Shown here piece by piece: positions 42,163 through 56,790 of a stretch of DNA of 64,000 nt. This stretch comes from Anaeromyxobacter sp. Lineage in GTDB: Bacteria > Myxococcota > Myxococcia > Myxococcales > Anaeromyxobacteraceae. The notes beneath the pieces are model-generated. The model had not been told where the DNA came from. It made no database searches and saw nothing but the letters and a program-made list of their open reading frames with translations. The stretch covers positions 672,001 through 736,000 of the forward strand of contig JASGJN010000020.1 in the NCBI GenBank assembly GCA_049840735.1, in the 5' to 3' direction. Every line of letters begins with the position of its first letter. Within the stretch, counting starts at the first letter, position 1. The translations under genes were made by a program, and so were the position numbers.

Positions 42163-45100
42163 CTACTTCAGGTAGGTGCCGTCCACGCCGATCTTCCCGG
42201 GGGCGGGGTTGCCCGACTGGCTGAGGACGTAGACGCGCGCGTTACCCTTGCCGCTGCAGGTGATGGTGAGGCTGCCGCCGGTCACCGTGGCCGAGGCGCC
42301 GGTGATGGCGTCGACGTAGGTGCCGTTGGGGATGCCGGTGAACGTCGCGTCGCCGGAGACGGTGACGAGCGCGAACGAGTCGACCGAGCCGCTGGTGTAC
42401 CGGCGCTTGAAGGCCATGCCGCCGCTGCTCACGCCCTCCGTCGAGTACTGGCCCATCTGCAGCGCCGGGACGGCGCGGCGGATCAGGTTGAGCCGGCGGA
42501 TGTGCTGGGCCAGCGGGTGGCTCAGGGTGGTGGCCACGTTGCCGGAGGCGCCGCTGTACTGGCCGAAGCCGGTCACCGTCAGGCTGCCCGTGATCTTGTC
42601 ACCGAAGTAGGCGCGGCCGGTGGTCGACAGCGGCGCGTTGGGGCCGACGTCGATGGGCATGCCCTTCTGGAACTCGATCTCGCTGCCGTAGAAGATGGTC
42701 GGGACGCCACGGAAGGTGAAGATCAGCGAGAGGTCCTCGGCCCAGCTGTCCTGGGGCTGGGCGTACCGCTGGTTCTCCGGGGCGCCGTCCGGCGCGTAGT
42801 CGTGCGAGTCGACGTAGGTCACGTTCCAGGTCGGGTCGCTGTAGTACTGGTCGCCACCGAGCGCCATGGAGAACGCGTCGCGGGCGTAGGTGAAGCTCCA
42901 GTGCATGGGGAAGTCGATCACGTCCAGGCCGGAGCGACGGCTCCAGTCCGGCGCGTGGTAGGTGTTCCCGCTGAGCAGGTGGTTGTTGCTGGTGGGCTGG
43001 GTGCCGACGTTGGTGTTGTCGTTCCAGTTCGCCAGCACCGAGGCCTCGTTGGTCTGCCGGTTGCCCCAGGGATACGACACCGTCTCCTTCCAGGTGAAGA
43101 AGGGCGTGGAGATGGCGGGGATGCCGGAGTTCCAGACGTTGCGGTAGCGGGTGGCCACCTCGCCGAAGACGAAGAAGTTGTCGCCGCCGCGGGCCTTCCA
43201 GGCCGGGATGAACACCTTGTTGAAGTCGAGCCGCGAGACGTGCTTCACGGTGTCGACCCGGAACCCGTCCACGCCCATGTCGATGTACTTGTTGTACGCG
43301 TCGACCAGGTACTGCTGGACGGTGGGGTTCTCGGTGTTCAGGTCCACGCAGTCGCCGGCGATCTGCCCGGTCTGGACGGTGTAGCTCTCCCAGCTGAGCG
43401 ACTTCTCGTGGTGGTAGATGAAGTTGGTGTCGTTGGCGTCCTCCTTCATCGCGTTGATGCGGGCGGAGTACTGCGCCGCCGGCGTCAGCGTGTCGTAGTT
43501 CGCCGGCAGCCAGGGGTTCGAGAGCTTGGTGAGCGCGGCCGAGATGGCCTCGTTCAGCCCCGTGGGCGCGTTGCGCTTGAACATCGGGAAGAGGTTCTCC
43601 TCACCGAAGTTGCCGGTGTGGTTCACCACGATGTCCTGGATGATCTTCATGCCGCGCGCGTGCGCCTCGTCGATGAGCCGCTTGTACGACGCCTCGGCGG
43701 TCTCGCCGCGCGACTTGGTGGCGTAGCGCGGGTCGACCTCCTTGTGGTTGATGGCGTGGTAGCCGTGGTAGTCGTACCCGCTCGAGTTCTTCACCACCGG
43801 CGTGATCCACACCGCCGAGAAGCCCAGCGCCTTGATGTAGTCGAGCTTCTGGATCAGGCCCTCGAAGTCACCGCGGTAGCAGGGATCGGTGTCCGGGTTC
43901 TTGGCGGTGGCGTCGTCCCAGCAGTGCACGTTGTTGCTGGCGTCGCCGTCGTAGAAGCGGCTGGTGATGACGAAGTAGATGGTCTCGGCGCGGAAGTCGG
44001 TCCGGACCGGCGCGGTCCCGGCGTAGAAGTTGAAGGACGCGGTGGCCTGGTTCCCGGCGCCGTCCACCACCAGGAACTTGAAGTTCACGGTGGAGGTGAT
44101 GGTGAAGCTCCCGCCGGTGAGGCCGGCCGAGGCGTTGCCCGACACGTAGAGCGTGGACGAGGTGGTCGGGGTGGAGCCGTCGGTCGTGTAGTAGGCCCTG
44201 GTCGTCGCCGTCTTGTTGTCGGTGACGGTGAAGGAGACCGTGCCGGAGGTGCCCACGTAGCCCTCGGCGCGGCTGGCCACGATGCTCGGCTTCACCACGT
44301 CGGCGTTGGGGTCGATGGTGTAGGCGAAGCCGTAGACCGAGCCCGCCACCGCGTTGCGGTTGACGCCGAACGCCTTGATGGTCATCGAGGCGCCCACGTC
44401 GATGGGGGCGGTGTACCGGGTCGAGGCGGTGGTGGGGGTGGTGCCGTCGAGCGTGTAGTAGATGACGTCGTCGGTGTTGCTGCTGGTCAGCCGGACGTTC
44501 TGCGCCGCGACGTAGAGCCCGGGCGCCAGGTCGGCGTCGATGACCGGGACCTTGGGCGCCTCCGGGTTCTGGTCGTACCACTTGTTGTCGGTGAAGTACC
44601 AACCCTCGCCCGTGCGCGACAGGTCCCCGGTCTGGTGGCCGGCGCCGTCGTTGAACACGATGCTGGCGCTGGTGGCGCCGGGGATCGTGTACTTGTACCA
44701 GTCGCTCCCCTCCGAGGTCATGGTGTTGCCCGGCCAGGTGGTGGCGGTGATGGAGGTCGGGACCACGTTCCAGTAGTGGATCCTGAGCGTGGTGCCCCAG
44801 GTCGACGGGCGCTTGAAGTGGACCGTGAGGCCGGTGTCGGTGGTGTTGCTGACCGTGACGCTGCGCGCGGCCGAGGTGGCGTTGTTGGCCGCCGCGTCGT
44901 AGGCCTTGGCGGTCAGGGCGTACGTGCCGTTGGCGATCCCGGCGGTGTTCCAGCTCAGGCTGTACGGGGAGGCGGTGGCGGTGCCGATGAGCGTGGTGCC
45001 CGCGTAGAACTCCACCTTGGTCACGCCCTTGTTGTCGCTGGCCGTGGCGCTGACCGTGACGGCGCCGGTGAGGATGGCGCCGGCCGCGGGCGCGGAGAGC

Positions 45101-46401
45101 GCGACCGTGGGGTTGGTGGTGTCCGGGGTGGTGTTGCTGACCGTGACGCTGCGGGCGGCGGAGACGGCGGAGTTGCCGGCCGCGTCGTAGGCCTTGGCGG
45201 TCAGGCTGTAGGTGCCGTTGGCGTCGCCGGTGGTGGTCCAGGTGATGGTCCAGGGCGAGGCGGTGGCGGTGCCGAGGAGCGCGGCGCCGGCGTAGAACTC
45301 GACCTTGGTGACGCCCACGTTGTCGCTGGCGGTGGCGGTCACGGCCACGGCGCCGGTCAGCGTGGCGCCGGCCGCCGGGGCGGAGAGCGCGACCGTCGGG
45401 ACGGTGGTGTCACCGCCGGTCTTCACCACGGTGTAGGCCTTCGTGCTGTCGTTGAACGTGACGCGGTAGGTGCCCGCTCCGCCGGTGACGGCGATGTCCC
45501 CCTCGCCGGCGCCGGCGACGCCGTCCTTGCCGTTGTCGCCGAAGTTCGTGGCCCAGTTGGCGTAGACGTCGAACTTGAAGCGGTCGTCGGCGGCGCCGGA
45601 AAAGGTCACGTCGGCCTGCCAGGTGTAGGTGGCGACCTTGACCATGTCGGTCGCGCCCCAGCTGTTGCAGGTGCCGCGCAGGTACATCGACGGGTAGAAG
45701 GAGGCGTAGGAGGAGTTGCTGACGGTGGCCGTCACGGCGCTGGAGGTCGCGACGTTGCCGGCCGCGTCGTAGGCCTTGGCGGTGATGGCGTAGGAGCCGT
45801 TGGCCAGGCTGGTCGAGTCCCACGAGACGCTGTAGGGCGAGGTCGTGTCGGTGCCGATCACCGTGGTGCCGGCCAGGAAGTCCACCTTGGCGACGCCCAC
45901 GTTGTCCGAGGCGGTGGCGCTGAGCGTGACCACGCCGGTGAGCGTGGCGCCCGCGGCCGGCGCGGTCAGCGAGACGGTCGGAGCGGTCGCGTCGCCCGCC
46001 TTCACGACCGTGTAGGCCTTGGTCGAGTCATTGAAGGTGATGGTGTACGAGCCCGCGCCGCCGCTCACCACGATGTTGGCGCCGCCGGAGTCGGCGTAGC
46101 CGTCGTTGTTGTTGTCGCCCCAGTTGGTGGTCCAGTTGCCGGCCACGTCGAACTTGAAGGACTCGCTGGTGGTGCTCCCGAACGTCACGCTGGCGGCCTG
46201 CCAGGTGTTGTTGGCCACCAGCGACATGGCCGTGGTGCCCCAGCTGTTGTTCGTGCCGCGCACGTACATGGTCGTGTACGAGCTGGAGTAGGCGCTGGGC
46301 AGGATCGGCCCGCCGCCCTCATCCACCGGCTGCCCCCCTTGCTCCGTCCCACCGCAGGCGGCGAGCGCCGCCACGAACAGCACCCCGATCAACTTGCGCA
46401 T
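42163..46401 (-). CDS. Multimodular lipoprotein alpha-amylase (GH13) with starch-binding and Ig-like modules
   Basis: Lipobox LAAC; 2x MY.RGT.NSWG..FKFDV modules; 3x PTV.L.AP..ASDN.GV.KV.F Ig-like; YYTLDGTTP-type modules; catalytic DIVVNH, GFRVDTVKH, FGEV, VDSHD. Confidence 0.92.
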   Translation of the reverse strand: MRKLIGVLFVAALAACGGTEQGGQPVDEGGGPILPSAYSSSYTTMYVRGTNNSWGTTAMSLVANNTWQAASVTFGSTTSESFKFDVAGNWTTNWGDNNNDGYADSGGANIVVSGGAGSYTITFNDSTKAYTVVKAGDATAPTVSLTAPAAGATLTGVVTLSATASDNVGVAKVDFLAGTTVIGTDTTSPYSVSWDSTSLANGSYAITAKAYDAAGNVATSSAVTATVSNSSYASFYPSMYLRGTCNSWGATDMVKVATYTWQADVTFSGAADDRFKFDVYANWATNFGDNGKDGVAGAGEGDIAVTGGAGTYRVTFNDSTKAYTVVKTGGDTTVPTVALSAPAAGATLTGAVAVTATASDNVGVTKVEFYAGAALLGTATASPWTITWTTTGDANGTYSLTAKAYDAAGNSAVSAARSVTVSNTTPDTTNPTVALSAPAAGAILTGAVTVSATASDNKGVTKVEFYAGTTLIGTATASPYSLSWNTAGIANGTYALTAKAYDAAANNATSAARSVTVSNTTDTGLTVHFKRPSTWGTTLRIHYWNVVPTSITATTWPGNTMTSEGSDWYKYTIPGATSASIVFNDGAGHQTGDLSRTGEGWYFTDNKWYDQNPEAPKVPVIDADLAPGLYVAAQNVRLTSSNTDDVIYYTLDGTTPTTASTRYTAPIDVGASMTIKAFGVNRNAVAGSVYGFAYTIDPNADVVKPSIVASRAEGYVGTSGTVSFTVTDNKTATTRAYYTTDGSTPTTSSTLYVSGNASAGLTGGSFTITSTVNFKFLVVDGAGNQATASFNFYAGTAPVRTDFRAETIYFVITSRFYDGDASNNVHCWDDATAKNPDTDPCYRGDFEGLIQKLDYIKALGFSAVWITPVVKNSSGYDYHGYHAINHKEVDPRYATKSRGETAEASYKRLIDEAHARGMKIIQDIVVNHTGNFGEENLFPMFKRNAPTGLNEAISAALTKLSNPWLPANYDTLTPAAQYSARINAMKEDANDTNFIYHHEKSLSWESYTVQTGQIAGDCVDLNTENPTVQQYLVDAYNKYIDMGVDGFRVDTVKHVSRLDFNKVFIPAWKARGGDNFFVFGEVATRYRNVWNSGIPAISTPFFTWKETVSYPWGNRQTNEASVLANWNDNTNVGTQPTSNNHLLSGNTYHAPDWSRRSGLDVIDFPMHWSFTYARDAFSMALGGDQYYSDPTWNVTYVDSHDYAPDGAPENQRYAQPQDSWAEDLSLIFTFRGVPTIFYGSEIEFQKGMPIDVGPNAPLSTTGRAYFGDKITGSLTVTGFGQYSGASGNVATTLSHPLAQHIRRLNLIRRAVPALQMGQYSTEGVSSGGMAFKRRYTSGSVDSFALVTVSGDATFTGIPNGTYVDAITGASATVTGGSLTITCSGKGNARVYVLSQSGNPAPGKIGVDGTYLK

Positions 46402-51783: not shown

Positions 51784-52521
51784 GTGGCGGAGCGAAACCT
51801 CACCTCTGGCGACTGGACGAGCATCACCAGCGCGAGCGCGCTCGAGAAGGCCTACGACCTGGCCGACGCGCGCGCCGCCTGGGCCATCGACTGGTACGAC
51901 GGCCACATGCGCTGGCGCGGGCGGGCGGCGCGCTGGCTGCGCTTCGTGGCGCTGCTGCTGGTGGGCCTGGGGACCATCTTCCCCATCGGAAAGGGGTTCG
52001 TGCCGGGGCTGAAGGACGGCGCGCTCAACGACCTGGGGTACCTGGCGCTGGCGCTGGGCGGCGCGCTGCTCGCGTTCGACCACTTCTTCGGCATCACCAC
52101 CGCGTACACGCGCTTCGTCACCACCGCCCTGGCGCTGCGCGACGCGCGGCTGCGCTTCCAGGTGGACTGGCTCCGGCTGCTGGCCCAGGCGCGGTCCGGC
52201 AGCGGCTCGGCGGCGACGCGCCAGGCGGCGCTCTGGGCCCGGCTGCGCAGCTTCGTGGAGGCGGTGCTCACGCTCATCGACCGCGAGACGCAGGCCTGGG
52301 TGGTCGAGTTCCGCTCCAGCCTGAGCGAGCTGGAGAAGCTGGCCCGGCGCGAGCCGGACCGGCACGGCGAGGAGGACGACGCGCCCGGCGCCGCGCCCGC
52401 CGCCACGCCCGCGCCGGCGCGGCTCCAGCCGGGACCGGGCGAGGCCACGCCGCCGGAGGACGCGCCCGTCCACCTGGTGGCCCCGGACGGCTCCTTCCCG
52501 CACCCGGACGCGCGGCCATGA
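51784..52521 (+). CDS. SLATT (SLATT_2-like) two-TM domain protein
   Basis: GGAGG RBS; AIDWY..RR-like basic patch, TM1, LGYLALALGGALLAFDHFFG..AYTRF, helical ETQAWVVEF tail, then Pro/Ala-rich end. Confidence 0.8.
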   Translation: MAERNLTSGDWTSITSASALEKAYDLADARAAWAIDWYDGHMRWRGRAARWLRFVALLLVGLGTIFPIGKGFVPGLKDGALNDLGYLALALGGALLAFDHFFGITTAYTRFVTTALALRDARLRFQVDWLRLLAQARSGSGSAATRQAALWARLRSFVEAVLTLIDRETQAWVVEFRSSLSELEKLARREPDRHGEEDDAPGAAPAATPAPARLQPGPGEATPPEDAPVHLVAPDGSFPHPDARP

Positions 52522-53381
52522 GCGCGCAGTGGGCGGTCTCCTGGCACCACGTCCGGCTGGGCATCCCGGGCCTGTGGCGGCAGGAGCTGGTGGGGCGCGA
52601 CACCGGGGTGGCGCTGCTCGACACCGGCCTGGCCGCGCCGCCCGGGCTCGACCGGAAGAGCTTCGAGTACCTGGACTCGGCGGGCGGGCTCATCGGGCCG
52701 GGCGATCCGGAGGGGCACGGCACCAGCTGCGCCAGCGTGATCGCCGGCTACCGCGGCGGCGCGCTGGGCATCGCTCCGTACACGCGCATCCACAGCCTGC
52801 GGGTGCTGGGCCCCGGCACCTCCACGCGCGACGTCGAGGCCGCCTTCGGGTGGGCGCTGGAGCAGCCGGAGATCGACGTGGTCTCCTGCAGCTTCAGCAT
52901 GCCGGTGCTGAGCCAGCGCGCCGCCGAGCTGGTCCGGGCGTTGAGCGCCGCCGGCAAGGTGGTGGTGGCCGCCGCCGGCGACGCGCAGGTGGCCAACCCC
53001 TTCCCCGAGGGCGCCCCCAAGACCATCACCGTGGCGGCGGTGGACCGGGACGGCAAGCCCCTCCCCGGCGCGCGCACCGGCGCCTTCATCGACGTCTCCG
53101 CCCCGGGGCTGGACCTGCCGGTGGTCACGCCCGGCGGCGCCCTCGGCCGCTTCAGCGAGTCGTCCGCCGCGGCGGCGGTGGTGAGCGGCGTGGCCGCGCT
53201 GATCCTCTCCAGCCGCCCGCGCGGCCCGGAGCGGCAGGCGCTGGCGCTCAGCCTGGAGAGCCTGATCAAGCGGACCGCCTGGGCGCTGGGGGGCGGACCG
53301 CAGCCGGCGGTGACGCCTGGCGCCGCGCCGGGGATCATCCGCCCGGCGGCGCTGCTGGCCGCCGCGAAGGAGCTGGTCTGA
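52518..53381 (+). CDS. S8 subtilisin-like serine peptidase, no signal peptide
   Basis: VALLDTG (Asp), GHGTSCAS (His), ESSAAAAVVSGVAAL (Ser region), DVSAPG. ATGA overlap with SLATT. Confidence 0.85.
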   Translation: MSAQWAVSWHHVRLGIPGLWRQELVGRDTGVALLDTGLAAPPGLDRKSFEYLDSAGGLIGPGDPEGHGTSCASVIAGYRGGALGIAPYTRIHSLRVLGPGTSTRDVEAAFGWALEQPEIDVVSCSFSMPVLSQRAAELVRALSAAGKVVVAAAGDAQVANPFPEGAPKTITVAAVDRDGKPLPGARTGAFIDVSAPGLDLPVVTPGGALGRFSESSAAAAVVSGVAALILSSRPRGPERQALALSLESLIKRTAWALGGGPQPAVTPGAAPGIIRPAALLAAAKELV

Positions 53382-53401
53382 TGCACACGGGAGGAGTCGT
53401 C

Positions 53402-55489
53402 ATGCGTGGCTTCCGGAACATGATCCTGCTGGCCCTGCTCGCCCCCGCCGCCGCCTTGGCCTCCGAGGCGCCGCCCGCGCCGTCCGCCATGCCCTCCCCC
53501 GAGGAGCTGGCGCCGCTCCTCATCCCCGAGCTGCCGGCCCGGCAGACCACGCTGGCCGGCGATCTGGACCGGGCCTGCCAGGTCCTGTCCGGCGAGGCCG
53601 CGCGCGCCCGGCTCGCCTCCCGCGGGAGCCAGCGGATCCTGGCCTCGGCCGAGGCCAGCCTCACCTACGCCGGCCTGCGCCACGCCTGCGACGCCGTGCT
53701 GGGGGTGGCGCCGGCCTTCACCGAGGAGGACATGGCGGCGCTGGAGGCCTTCCAGCGCGCCCCGTCGCTCTACCGCGAGGCGCTCCAGAAGGAGTTCCAG
53801 GACCAGGGTGGCGAGCCCCAGGGGCCGACCGCGCTGGCCACCTCGCTGGGCGGGCTGGCCGCCAACGTGGTGAACGGCCTGGCCGACTTCCTCTACGACC
53901 GCGCCAAGCTGGAGGCGGCCACCTACCTGCGCCAGCAGCTCACCGCCGAGCTGTGCCAGGAGGCGCGCCGGCCCTTCCTCCCCGCCACCTGCGCGGCGTT
54001 CGAGTCCGCCGACCTGACCATCTCGCTGGGCGCCATCGGCTCCTATCTGGTCTCGGCGGCGCGCAGGGACCTGCGCCAGCTCCCGGACACCGCCCTGGTC
54101 TACGGCCTGCATGCGCTGCCCCCGGAGCAGCGGGCCGGCCGAGACCTGCTCTTCGGCGGGCGCCTCGGGCTGGCCTACTACTGGGCGGTGGCCGGCGGGC
54201 GGACCCCGCTCGACGTGGGGCGCTCCCTCCACGCCCTGCGCCCGGCGCACGTGCCCGCCCCGGAGCTGCTGGAGGCCCTGGTGCTCACCTCGCAGCTGGT
54301 GGACGCCATCACGCAGCAGGCCGGCTGGGAGAAGCTCGAGCCGACCCGCTTCCCGACGCTGGCGCGCTGCCACGTGGCCGCGGTGCTGCTGACGGTGCGC
54401 GGCATGCCCGCCGACGAGGGGCGGCCGCTGGACCTCTCCACGGCCGAGCGGTTCAGCAAGGCCAGCCGCCAGGCCGGCGCCGTGCTGGACCTCGTCGCCG
54501 ACCTGGCCGCGCTCAAGGGCGAGGCGGACCGGCTGGCCGACGCTCTCCGCGAGCGCACCCGGCCGGCCGCGGCGGCCGACTTCTCCAGCATGGAGGACGT
54601 GGCGAAGGCCCCGGTCGGCGGGACCGCCACCGGCCGCGACTACGCCGTGCTGGCCACGCGCTTCCTGGGCGTGGTGGTGCGCGACGGCACCGCGCTGGCG
54701 GGCAGGCTGGGGCCGGCGGCGCCGGACGAGCCGCGGCTCCAGGCGCTGCCGCACGTGGCGGGGTTCGGCGAGCAGCTGGTGACCGCGGTGGACGCACAGC
54801 AGTACGACCCCAGCGCCATGGCCGTCGCGGCGGTCTCCCTGCTGGAGGGGCTCGACGCCGAGCTGGCGCGCGCCCACCTGCCCCGGGTGCTGAAGCTGCC
54901 CGAGCCCGTCCGCCAGGCCGTCCCCTTCATCGCGCAGCTGGCGCAGGCGAAGTCGGCGGACGAGGCGCGGGCGGTGATCGAGGCCGCGGCGGTGCCGGCC
55001 GGCGCCTACCGGGACCGGTATCGCAAGCCGGTGGTGGCGCTCGGCTCCTTCGTGGGCGTCTCCGGCGGCGCCGAGGCGGTGAAGCTGCACGGCACGGAGT
55101 GGAGCGGCGTGGCCGGCCCCTTCGCGCCGGTGGGGCTCACCGCCACCTGGCCCAGGTGCGGCGGCGCCTGCCACCTGGGCGTGATGGTCTCGGTGCTCAA
55201 CGTGGGCGCGCTGGTTTCCACCCGCTTCCAGGCGGACACCAGCACCTCCGGCGGGGAGACGAAGACGGTGGGCAACGACACCACCGTGGAGTGGGCCAAC
55301 GTCCTCACGCCGGGCGTGTTCGGCACGGTGGGGATCGGGCGCAGCCCGTTCACGCTCGGCGCCGGGCTGCAGGTCCTGCCGGCCCGGCAGGTGGAGATCA
55401 CCGACGGCAGCGGCACGCGCAGCAGCACCACGCCCGCCGTGCAGGGGCTGGTCTTCCTGGGCGTGGACGTGCCCATCTTCGCGTTCTGA
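53402..55489 (+). CDS. Large exported hypothetical protein with helical body and C-terminal beta-rich segment ending in Phe
   Basis: GGAGGAG RBS, signal peptide ..PAAALA-SE, C-terminus GLVFLGVDVPIFAF. Alternative ATG at 53381 overlaps the S8 stop. Confidence 0.8.
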   Translation: MRGFRNMILLALLAPAAALASEAPPAPSAMPSPEELAPLLIPELPARQTTLAGDLDRACQVLSGEAARARLASRGSQRILASAEASLTYAGLRHACDAVLGVAPAFTEEDMAALEAFQRAPSLYREALQKEFQDQGGEPQGPTALATSLGGLAANVVNGLADFLYDRAKLEAATYLRQQLTAELCQEARRPFLPATCAAFESADLTISLGAIGSYLVSAARRDLRQLPDTALVYGLHALPPEQRAGRDLLFGGRLGLAYYWAVAGGRTPLDVGRSLHALRPAHVPAPELLEALVLTSQLVDAITQQAGWEKLEPTRFPTLARCHVAAVLLTVRGMPADEGRPLDLSTAERFSKASRQAGAVLDLVADLAALKGEADRLADALRERTRPAAAADFSSMEDVAKAPVGGTATGRDYAVLATRFLGVVVRDGTALAGRLGPAAPDEPRLQALPHVAGFGEQLVTAVDAQQYDPSAMAVAAVSLLEGLDAELARAHLPRVLKLPEPVRQAVPFIAQLAQAKSADEARAVIEAAAVPAGAYRDRYRKPVVALGSFVGVSGGAEAVKLHGTEWSGVAGPFAPVGLTATWPRCGGACHLGVMVSVLNVGALVSTRFQADTSTSGGETKTVGNDTTVEWANVLTPGVFGTVGIGRSPFTLGAGLQVLPARQVEITDGSGTRSSTTPAVQGLVFLGVDVPIFAF

Positions 55490-55503: not shown

Positions 55504-56790
55504 TCAGCTCGTCGGCGGACCGAAGCTGCGCTCGAACAGCGCCCGGATGGCCTCGCGGCCGGCCTCGTCCAGCGCGCGGGTCCCGGCGCCGGCGAACCGC
55601 TCCTGCGTGATCACCGGCGGCGGCTCGGCCTGCCAGTCCTGCCCGTCCCAGCGCAGCCAGCAGCGCTGGTCCAGGTCGAACAGGTGCACCGGCCGGTCCC
55701 AGTGACGGGCCAGCTCCACGGCCCAGCCGGTGCCGCCGTGGGCGGTCCGGTCCTCGCCGACGGTGCCCACCGCGAAGACCTCGCCGGCGGTGCTCACCTG
55801 GTGCCAGATGGCCTGCAGCACCGGGCGCAGCTCGGGCCGCCCGGCCAGCGCGCGGTGCAGGTGGGCCTCGACGTAGACCGCGCTCACGTCGCCCAGCCGC
55901 AGCTCGTCCCCGGTCAGCTCGACCTGCCCGCGGGTCCGGACCGGGGCCTCGCGGCCGGCGAAGGTGTAGTTCACCTCCTGCACGCCCCAGCGCTCGGCGC
56001 AGGCGCCGAAGGCCGCCTCCGCGCCGGCGGAGCCGAGGGCCAGCAGCGTGCACTCCTCCGGGCGCAGCGCCGGCTCCGGCCCCAGGTCCTGCCCCGGCGA
56101 GCGCAGCGCCCCGGCCTCCACCACCAGGTGCACGTCCGAGCCGGGGTAGCGGTCGAAGTCCTTCACCAGCGTGAGCCGGGCCTGGGGGCCGTGCGGCTCC
56201 AGCAGCAGGGCCACGTCCACCAGCCCGGCGCAGCCGTCGGAGAGCGGCGCCGGACGCGCCGGCCCGGTCCGCTCGTGCGGGAGCGCCTCGCGGGCGGTCA
56301 TCCAGGCCTCCGCGCCGATGCGGGCCGCGGCGGCCTTCACGGTGCGGAGCACCTCCTCCGCCCCGGGCTCGTCCCAGCCGAAGCCCTCCACCAGCAGCGT
56401 GGTGGGGTCGTGGCCGGCGCTGGCGCGGAACGCGGCCAGGGCCTCGTCCAGCGCCCGGGCGCAGTCGCCGTCCATCGAGGACCAGATGAGCCGGCGGCGG
56501 ACCACGCCGTCGCGCACGCCCTCCCGGTCCTTGAGGTCCACCCGCCGCGCCAGCTCCTCGAAGTGGGCGTCGTAGCGGGTGCAGACGTGGTCCACCGGCT
56601 GGCGGACCGCCAGGTGCAGCACGGCCCGCCCGCGCAGCAGGGCGTCGAGCCCCAGCTGCACCAGGCAGGCCGATTTGCCGATCCCTGCAGGCGCCAGGAT
56701 GACCCCCAGGTGACCCTTGCCGAGCCCGCCGCGGATGCTGCGGTCGAGGATCCGCAGCGGGCTCTGGAGGATCGCTTCCTGGCGGAGCAT
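55504..56790 (-). CDS. KaiC/RecA-like P-loop ATPase fused to a SLOG-like domain
   Basis: LDRSIRGGLGKG..APAGIGKS; C-terminal LGSAGAEAAF, GGTGWAVELA..RPVHLFD, FAGAGTR. Confidence 0.72.
   Translation of the reverse strand: MLRQEAILQSPLRILDRSIRGGLGKGHLGVILAPAGIGKSACLVQLGLDALLRGRAVLHLAVRQPVDHVCTRYDAHFEELARRVDLKDREGVRDGVVRRRLIWSSMDGDCARALDEALAAFRASAGHDPTTLLVEGFGWDEPGAEEVLRTVKAAAARIGAEAWMTAREALPHERTGPARPAPLSDGCAGLVDVALLLEPHGPQARLTLVKDFDRYPGSDVHLVVEAGALRSPGQDLGPEPALRPEECTLLALGSAGAEAAFGACAERWGVQEVNYTFAGREAPVRTRGQVELTGDELRLGDVSAVYVEAHLHRALAGRPELRPVLQAIWHQVSTAGEVFAVGTVGEDRTAHGGTGWAVELARHWDRPVHLFDLDQRCWLRWDGQDWQAEPPPVITQERFAGAGTRALDEAGREAIRALFERSFGPPTS

Follow-up and report, generated by a model that had tools for sequence, protein, structure and literature searches.

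The window analysed here is a stretch of 64,000 nucleotides from Anaeromyxobacter sp. (contig JASGJN010000020.1), in which three co-oriented open reading frames (ORFs) on the + strand, at 51784-55489, encode a SLATT_2 membrane protein, an S8 subtilase and an exported protein that we call ORF3. The conserved core of this locus is the pair of subtilase and ORF3, with SLATT as a swappable extra, and at least four protease classes pair with the family to which ORF3 belongs. The genes and the parts of their products on which the argument draws are these.

51784..52521, + strand: SLATT_2 membrane protein of 245 aa with two transmembrane (TM) segments (PF18183, NF033633), the swappable third component
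52351..52518, + strand: disordered C-terminal tail of SLATT, about residues 190-245, rich in Pro, Ala and Gly, likely cytoplasmic by the positive-inside pattern
52489..52497, + strand: Gly-Ser-Phe (GSF), SLATT residues 236-238, a candidate binding or cleavage site, also found in three unrelated membrane proteins that precede subtilases of this subclade
52518..53381, + strand: S8 subtilase of 287 aa without leader or prodomain (Peptidase_S8, E 1e-24; triad D35/H67/S216)
53402..55489, + strand: ORF3, 695 aa, a member of the unnamed family, with a signal peptide, a helical domain and a C-terminal beta domain ending in Phe
53402..53461, + strand: predicted Sec signal peptide, about residues 1-20, called from the sequence and the N-terminal hydrophobicity of the family without a dedicated predictor
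53483..55024, + strand: predicted periplasmic helical domain, residues 28-541 (AlphaFold 2 model with predicted local distance difference test, pLDDT, of 85.6 and predicted template modelling score of 0.85; conservation)
54575..54583, + strand: Ala-Asp-Phe (ADF), residues 392-394, in a flexible loop at the tip of a long helical hairpin, a candidate second site
55031..55486, + strand: six amphipathic beta strands, predicted to form a small barrel in the outer membrane or to contribute to an oligomeric one

ORF calling bore out the three co-oriented genes of a preliminary description of this DNA, and both of its domain assignments, SLATT_2 and Peptidase_S8, were matched by profile hidden Markov models. 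The ATGA in which the SLATT stop overlaps the subtilase start is present at 52518. The TGATG that had been described as joining subtilase and ORF3 is likewise present at 53379, but a protein started there has 702 aa and not 695; the 695-aa form begins at 53402 and is preceded by GGAGGAG, and with this ribosome-binding site the subtilase and ORF3 genes are probably 20 nt apart and non-overlapping. SLATT starts with GTG at 51784, with GGAGG six bases upstream. As the G+C content at third codon positions of the trio is 0.98, the same as in host genes, and its codon usage matches the host, the trio is not a recent low-GC island. A search of the locus for a sigma-70 promoter or a terminator gave no match.

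The ORF3 family comprises 1,982 clusters at E 0.001, and its Atlas clusters fall in Bacteroidota, Myxococcota and Pseudomonadota; ten members that were looked up are unnamed or 'hypothetical', bar one fusion named for its peptidase, and ORF3 itself has no match in Pfam, NCBIfam or PADLOC. The family is present in 28 of 401 and 33 of 301 Myxococcota genomes. For genomic context we collected 72 distinct loci, a sample that leaves out the Bacteroidota majority of the family and from which near-duplicates (L016, L017, L022, L032, L079, L080, L127 and sub-loci) and fragments or doubtful matches (L143, L150, L152, L153) were removed; a few weak or second matches were not fetched. Partner classes were counted over these loci by hand tally, the protease genes at L077, L139 and L141 having been recovered by six-frame checks. 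A co-oriented adjacent peptidase gene is found at 33 of the 72 loci by strict calls and at 44 when weak or motif-only calls are included, whereas a peptidase was the best Pfam match in none of 59 control genes, each from its own locus and three or more genes distant (113 were drawn, of which these 59 were scanned), one control esterase having a weak second match to S9. The strict set consists of 20 loci with a subtilase upstream, ten with a trypsin upstream (Pfam E <=1e-6), one with a C14 caspase upstream and two with a downstream partner, a trypsin and a CHAT protease, respectively; the neighbours at the 11 further loci are trypsin, zincin or papain-like. In addition, the two partners may be fused in one chain, as in P0106, which is a lipoprotein-trypsin-ORF3 protein (Pfam 9.3e-10), and in P0061 and P0090, in which a lipoprotein-like HExxH domain precedes ORF3 (motif seen by eye).

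The subtilase is directly upstream of ORF3 in 20 distinct loci, and in a quick tree of 59 rows, from which 11 partial or distant rows were excluded, the 19 subtilase-linked ORF3 proteins all fall within one 24-row clade (Shimodaira-Hasegawa-like approximate likelihood ratio support 99). The pairwise identities of subtilase and ORF3 are correlated (Spearman 0.61, 18 pairs, Mantel p 0.0005), which shows that the two are inherited together and not that they are in contact. A further search at the level of the order found a subtilase locus in 2 of 89, both already known. The preliminary description had considered that the system might be triggered through the third protein, and had named conservation of the trio as a check. 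A conserved trio is not supported, as SLATT stands beside none of the 71 other ORF3 loci and none of seven other SLATT_2 loci has either of the two partners nearby; ORF3 is the constant partner of the protease at the 20 loci rather than an accessory trigger.

In the AlphaFold model of the whole of ORF3 (pLDDT 84.6) a helical domain at about residues 30-541 is followed by six long strands at 544-694. The mean hydropathy over 128 sequences is 2.1-3.4 on one face and -0.5 to 0.6 on the other in all six strands, the final residue is F in 66 and L in 20 of the 128, and the N-terminus is hydrophobic in 95 of 115 members; the signal peptide of ORF3 has no lipobox Cys. The protein thus has the sequence features of an outer-membrane barrel, i.e., an N-terminal signal, amphipathic antiparallel strands and a terminal aromatic residue. 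The beta domain aligns with 89 of the 90 residues of BBn6 (Z 5.7, root-mean-square deviation, rmsd, 3.0), an entry whose name we take to denote a six-stranded design. Residues 533-691 bear a weak likeness to OmpW (Z 6.3, rmsd 5.2, 123 aligned), and with the eight-stranded barrels OmpW, PagL and OprF ORF3 shares this weak structural likeness, the amphipathic strands and the terminal Phe, while differing from them in its six modelled strands and its large N-terminal helical domain. Known assembled barrels have eight or more strands per barrel as compared to the six per chain of the model, the range given for outer-membrane barrels being 8-26 (PMC6340704). As the number of strands is even, the helical domain would be periplasmic, which fits its conserved Cys pairs C59/C96 and C185/C197; on the model, the six strands are predicted to anchor ORF3 in the outer membrane, leaving the helical domain on the periplasmic side. 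A fold search with the whole protein gave no clear match, and with the helical domain Foldseek gave none at E 0.001, the best match, VIA (Z 7.5), being a generic hairpin; sequence-profile matches were to designed helical bundles only.

A second loop of the helical domain, residues 131-157 (window ~53792-53872), is modelled with low confidence or disordered and is a candidate second cut site. By eye, [TS]-x-Q-[GS] is common in it among subtilase-linked members and a Gly-rich amphipathic segment comes next; a likewise visual comparison, made with a class-specific cut site in mind, found no matching pattern in trypsin- or caspase-linked members. In one branch (L135, L137, L138, L140, L134, L136) the gene after ORF3 encodes a small, Cys-rich, lipoprotein-like product of 150-280 aa, the conserved part of which has no Pfam match.

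The window subtilase has neither signal peptide nor prodomain, and all aligned members are bare domains of ~270-310 aa without a sensor domain; a search turned up no longer forms, which counts as weak evidence. The catalytic triad is intact in 19 of 19 members and the subfamily carries the signature C124-x-F126. Residue 127, which follows the Ser-Leu cleft strand and is Gly in thermitase, is a larger residue in 19 of 19 members, and as this Gly is replaced throughout, the cleft would be narrowed and the specificity narrow. The oxyanion position is Asp in the window subtilase, as in 7 of the 19, and together with the non-Gly residue 127 this suggests that the enzyme could have a low or narrow proteolytic activity. 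A predicted complex of subtilase and ORF3 scored 0.01 against a mark of 0.32, which is not evidence either way. The protease had been described as cytoplasmic, a placement that does not follow from its lack of a leader, since the leaderless PopC of Myxococcus gets into the periplasm (PMC6434023).

The gene order of protease followed by ORF3 is the passenger-then-barrel order of the fusions, and it is conceivable that ORF3 is an export or display platform, possibly an oligomeric barrel, that carries the protease across the outer membrane or holds it there, with the membrane protein aiding the inner-membrane crossing. PopC of Myxococcus xanthus accumulates in the periplasm and exits through the barrel protein Oar, and the PopC-PopD-Oar system resembles our locus in joining a leaderless subtilisin-like protease with an outer-membrane barrel protein in the same bacterial order; PopC, however, has a mass of 50.8 kDa and is extended at its N-terminus, and Oar belongs to the TonB-dependent transporters (PMC6434023); the window locus shows neither feature. 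We consider the platform quite unlikely, as the inward-facing aromatic and Gly residues conserved in the six strands hint at a barrel that is filled and has no channel, the strand parity would place the helical domain in the periplasm and the partner proteases are structurally unrelated.

The SLATT_2 assignment passes the curated cut-offs of both Pfam (PF18183, E 2.4e-20) and NCBIfam (NF033633, E 1.4e-35). Two hydrophobic stretches lie around residues 48 and 80, and P/G/A/S/T make up 57% of the last 60 residues, in agreement with the two-TM protein with a disordered tail that had been described; from the positive-inside pattern the tail is likely cytoplasmic. Most SLATT_2 relatives examined have a beta-sandwich-like domain in its place. 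At seven other SLATT_2 loci in the phylum, six proteins have a folded C-terminal domain instead of the tail (by eye, with one weak Pfam hint), neither subtilase nor ORF3 lies within ~6 kb, and one gene follows SIR2 and STAND genes and six are alone. The operon of a genus relative with SIR2-like, STAND-WD40 and SLATT_2 genes (L146:3140-8591, G018) resembles a defence system, and lone SLATT_2 genes with the beta-sandwich-like domain lie among Myxococcales housekeeping genes, with no signal-making partner nearby (L161, L162, L163, L164, L165). A profile scan of our operon and the two flanking genes found no signal-making enzyme (TIR, CD-NTase/cyclase, reverse transcriptase, SLOG) and no GTPase.

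In the subclade of the window (L001, L007, L008, L009, L011, L114) a closely coupled membrane protein precedes the subtilase at four loci. The occupants of this slot are SLATT (two TM segments), a 423-aa protein (four), a 343-aa protein (five) and a partial protein at L009 of which 90 residues are seen, and BLAST among the four found no mutual similarity. In all four GSF stands 8-12 residues before the C-terminus, within a tail rich in P/G/A/S/T. As a background, GSF occurs within the last 15 residues of 5 of 4,423 ORF ends of the host genome and of 1 of its 278 P/G/A/S/T-rich tails, counts that probably include SLATT itself. The motif is absent from ten other genes upstream of the subtilase and two other SLATT_2 proteins, and from the tailed SLATT relatives P0007 and P0008. 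In the hairpin-tip loop of ORF3, G-[SDGN]-F is found in 11 of 19 close relatives as compared to 1 of 109 others, and a looser form of the motif in 15 of 16 close and 15 of 112 other proteins. Subtilisins generally prefer large hydrophobic P1 residues, and given this preference and the narrow-specificity cleft we think that the subtilase likely binds or cuts the short G-x-F motif of both its neighbours. The earlier proposal that the protease clips the SLATT tail is thereby retained in part: GSF in four unrelated slot proteins is circumstantial evidence of engagement, but a cut after GSF would remove 5-9 residues and not the whole tail.

The trio is seen once, six of the seven other SLATT_2 loci have no defence partner, and the motif DNA is near-identical among the slot genes and lies 20-29 nt ahead of the subtilase start, all of which might be expected if SLATT were a chance insertion before a two-gene cassette and the tail motif a coincidence or an RNA-level coupling signal. 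We regard this as very unlikely, as the GSF codons lie in the frame of the upstream gene in four of four cases (a 1 in 27 chance with a free choice of frame), two of which carry synonymous changes, no RNA structure shared by the slot genes was found, SLATT and subtilase are coupled by ATGA and a matching motif exists in ORF3. An RNA hairpin was tried as an explanation of the GSF codons and rejected (z 1.64, 0.34, -1.30, 0.10). The nine GSF bases occur once more in non-coding repeat DNA at L008.

A second arrangement of membrane protein, protease and ORF3, here with a trypsin, is found at L061:11402-12235, L062:6787-7566 and L064:6570-7349. These membrane proteins lack GSF and have a Pro-rich linker and a small conserved domain at their C-terminal end; that they carry a split-off prodomain was rejected (hhalign probability 0.4%).

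Based on these data we tentatively propose, as a reading that is possible rather than probable, that the locus joins a subtilase, a conserved partner predicted to be anchored in the outer membrane and a swappable inner-membrane protein, that the subtilase likely binds or cuts the G-x-F motif of both, and that the outcome is a proteolysis-gated envelope or self-killing response; a two-membrane role in defence or lysis is our leading guess. The subtilase would be held at, or act on, the cytoplasmic tail of SLATT, SLATT would subsequently open the inner membrane, the protease would get into the periplasm and cut the hairpin-tip loop of ORF3, and the cleaved ORF3 would change or breach the outer membrane, with the response taking place during inter-organism conflict. 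As the tail is likely cytoplasmic and the loop periplasmic, tail, inner-membrane passage and then ORF3 would be the simplest order. Since PopC reaches the myxobacterial periplasm while leaderless (PMC6434023), access of the subtilase need not depend on SLATT, and such SLATT-independent access would account for the 16 pairs that have no tailed partner.

A number of points weigh against this proposal. At the level of the family, SLATT adjoins an ORF3 gene at 1 of the 72 loci, that of the window, and 28 of the 72 have no co-oriented adjacent peptidase (three divergent, one convergent and 24 with none visible, several of the 24 ending at a contig edge); the loci are related, so that the counts overstate their independence, most of them lie among ordinary genes with conflict neighbours a minority, and PADLOC gave no match for the four ORF3 proteins scanned. 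Only 4 of the 20 subtilase-ORF3 pairs come after a membrane protein with a tail, and thus the core is usually without a visible inner-membrane pore partner. As for the motif, it was spotted by eye, post hoc, in the same four proteins, its codons 20-29 nt upstream of the subtilase start could have an RNA-level role, and the loop of the window ORF3 carries ADF rather than GxF; the median length of this loop is 24 residues outside the close clade and 45 within it, which inflates the motif contrast. Finally, tail and loop are predicted to be in different compartments.

The two motifs could also be baits that resemble a substrate and keep the enzyme inactive on either side of the inner membrane, ORF3 then being an envelope-anchored inhibitor or immunity protein for an exported weapon protease. 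A leaderless hydrolase followed by a gene with a signal peptide is the usual effector-immunity layout, which the order of our locus matches, and the subtilase lacks a prodomain that would keep it in check. The closest example of a single outer-membrane-anchored family serving several peptidase classes is that of the potempins of Tannerella forsythia, each of which lies beside a cognate KLIKK peptidase of a different class (PMC9890683), and the ORF3 family, beside its several protease classes, is parallel to it. Unlike the potempins, lipoproteins of 98-132 residues encoded upstream of secreted peptidases (PMC9890683), ORF3 is ~700 aa long (550-1,000 aa across the family), is a predicted integral barrel lacking the lipobox Cys, is usually encoded downstream and is sometimes fused to the protease. 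As both the size and the fusions within a single chain speak against an inhibitor, and as the SLATT pore domain would be left without a role, we find this explanation unlikely.

With regard to known systems, the module that we propose appears to operate most like the protease-effector modules, yet it is a member of none of them. In the literature 43 of 50 bacterial gasdermins adjoin a protease (10.1101/2021.06.07.447441), MBL clades are paired with trypsin, caspase or S8, and Pepco is activated on losing a charged, Pro-rich C-terminal tail (PMC12642450). As in the gasdermin, Pepco, EACC1 and MBL modules, a constant partner is combined with interchangeable proteases (33/72 loci as compared to 0/59 controls). 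What sets the present module apart is that its constant partner is exported and has a predicted place in the outer membrane, that the subtilase consists of a catalytic domain without a sensor, and that no sequence or fold likeness to known effectors was found, a comparison that does not cover unlisted families. The main text of PMC12642450 makes no mention of SLATT, a signal peptide or the periplasm. SLATT has been described as a nucleotide-gated pore former (PMC7159879; 10.64898/2025.12.03.692087; 10.64898/2026.04.29.721553), and our protein, a true SLATT_2 with two TM segments, is in this respect like the effectors of the type VII Thoeris ThsH, CBASS, DRT10 and GAP1 systems. It differs from these nucleotide-signalling systems in that the operon has no TIR, cyclase, SLOG, reverse transcriptase or GTPase, and from the usual SLATT effectors in that the GSF tail replaces the C-terminal domain. 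Our literature search found no paper that pairs SLATT with S8 and none on the pairing of a protease with ORF3, an unnamed family being hard to search for by words and possibly listed in supplementary tables. The module is real and apparently undescribed, and it is built otherwise than the trio first described: a protease with a predicted outer-membrane partner, to which SLATT is a tagged, swappable extra.

Several ORF3 genes have conflict neighbours, i.e., SIR2-STAND at L007, a patatin with kinase-STAND at L057 and Shedu at L130. A conflict island at L004:6605-18967 (G068) combines a TPR-S/TRAF-binding trypsin, a small membrane protein, an ORF3 homologue, a trypsin-lipase fusion, TIR and STAND genes. 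Directly upstream of the ORF3 homologue at L119 is a gasdermin-like gene (L119:7346-8089, - strand; Atlas 0.98, with 12-33% of cluster members carrying the gasdermin-like family), which has no Pfam match, and within ~8 kb of this gene region (L119; L166:11346-19997) are kinase, S8 and C14 caspase genes. Most subtilase-ORF3 loci, on the other hand, lie among housekeeping genes and the family is common in the social Myxococcota, as might be expected of a non-defence module of envelope signalling or maturation in which a surface or developmental function would be adjusted by cutting ORF3, SLATT being no more than a membrane tether. We think this decidedly unlikely in view of the patchy distribution (1 or 2 of 91 family relatives), the frequent swapping of partners and the genes for pore formers, SLATT and gasdermin-like, in the upstream slot.

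The distribution around the window is as follows. Many genus relatives have kept the flanks, a YegD-like Hsp70 gene and KaiC-like/EF-G genes, which in these relatives are mostly ~12-39 kb apart when they share one contig, and the trio was not found there. Of 91 other genomes of the host's family, ORF3 was found in one and SLATT_2 in one, a different genome; L080 (G287) is a Myxococcus record, of the same order as the host. No ORF3 relatives were found in the plasmids or viral contigs searched, and no SLATT relatives in the viral contigs searched. Next to the trio, at 55504-56790 on the - strand, lies a KaiC/RecA-like ATPase gene with an unrecognised C-terminal domain, which adjoins the EF-G gene across the genus. 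Further off, at 42163-46401 on the - strand, is a gene for a 1,412-aa lipoprotein-like, multi-module protein of alpha-amylase type (by eye), with GC below its surroundings.

The proposal can be carried further, to a new kind of envelope immune or killing module in which a widespread six-strand-barrel family is armed by whatever protease adjoins it, unrelated pore formers of the inner membrane are recruited to that protease by gaining a three-residue C-terminal tag and both membranes are opened in sequence; in this full form we judge it rather unlikely. The protease-activated defence effectors in the studies cited here (10.1101/2021.06.07.447441, PMC12642450) target DNA or make their pores from the cytoplasmic side, and, if the module is of this kind, the logic of protease activation would be extended to an exported outer-membrane family of ~2,000 clusters without a name, a profile or a solved fold. 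A nucleotide-gated pore domain would have been rewired to a protease by way of a short tail tag and, should the model of ORF3 hold, its family would provide a natural membrane barrel of six strands, smaller than the known range of sizes.

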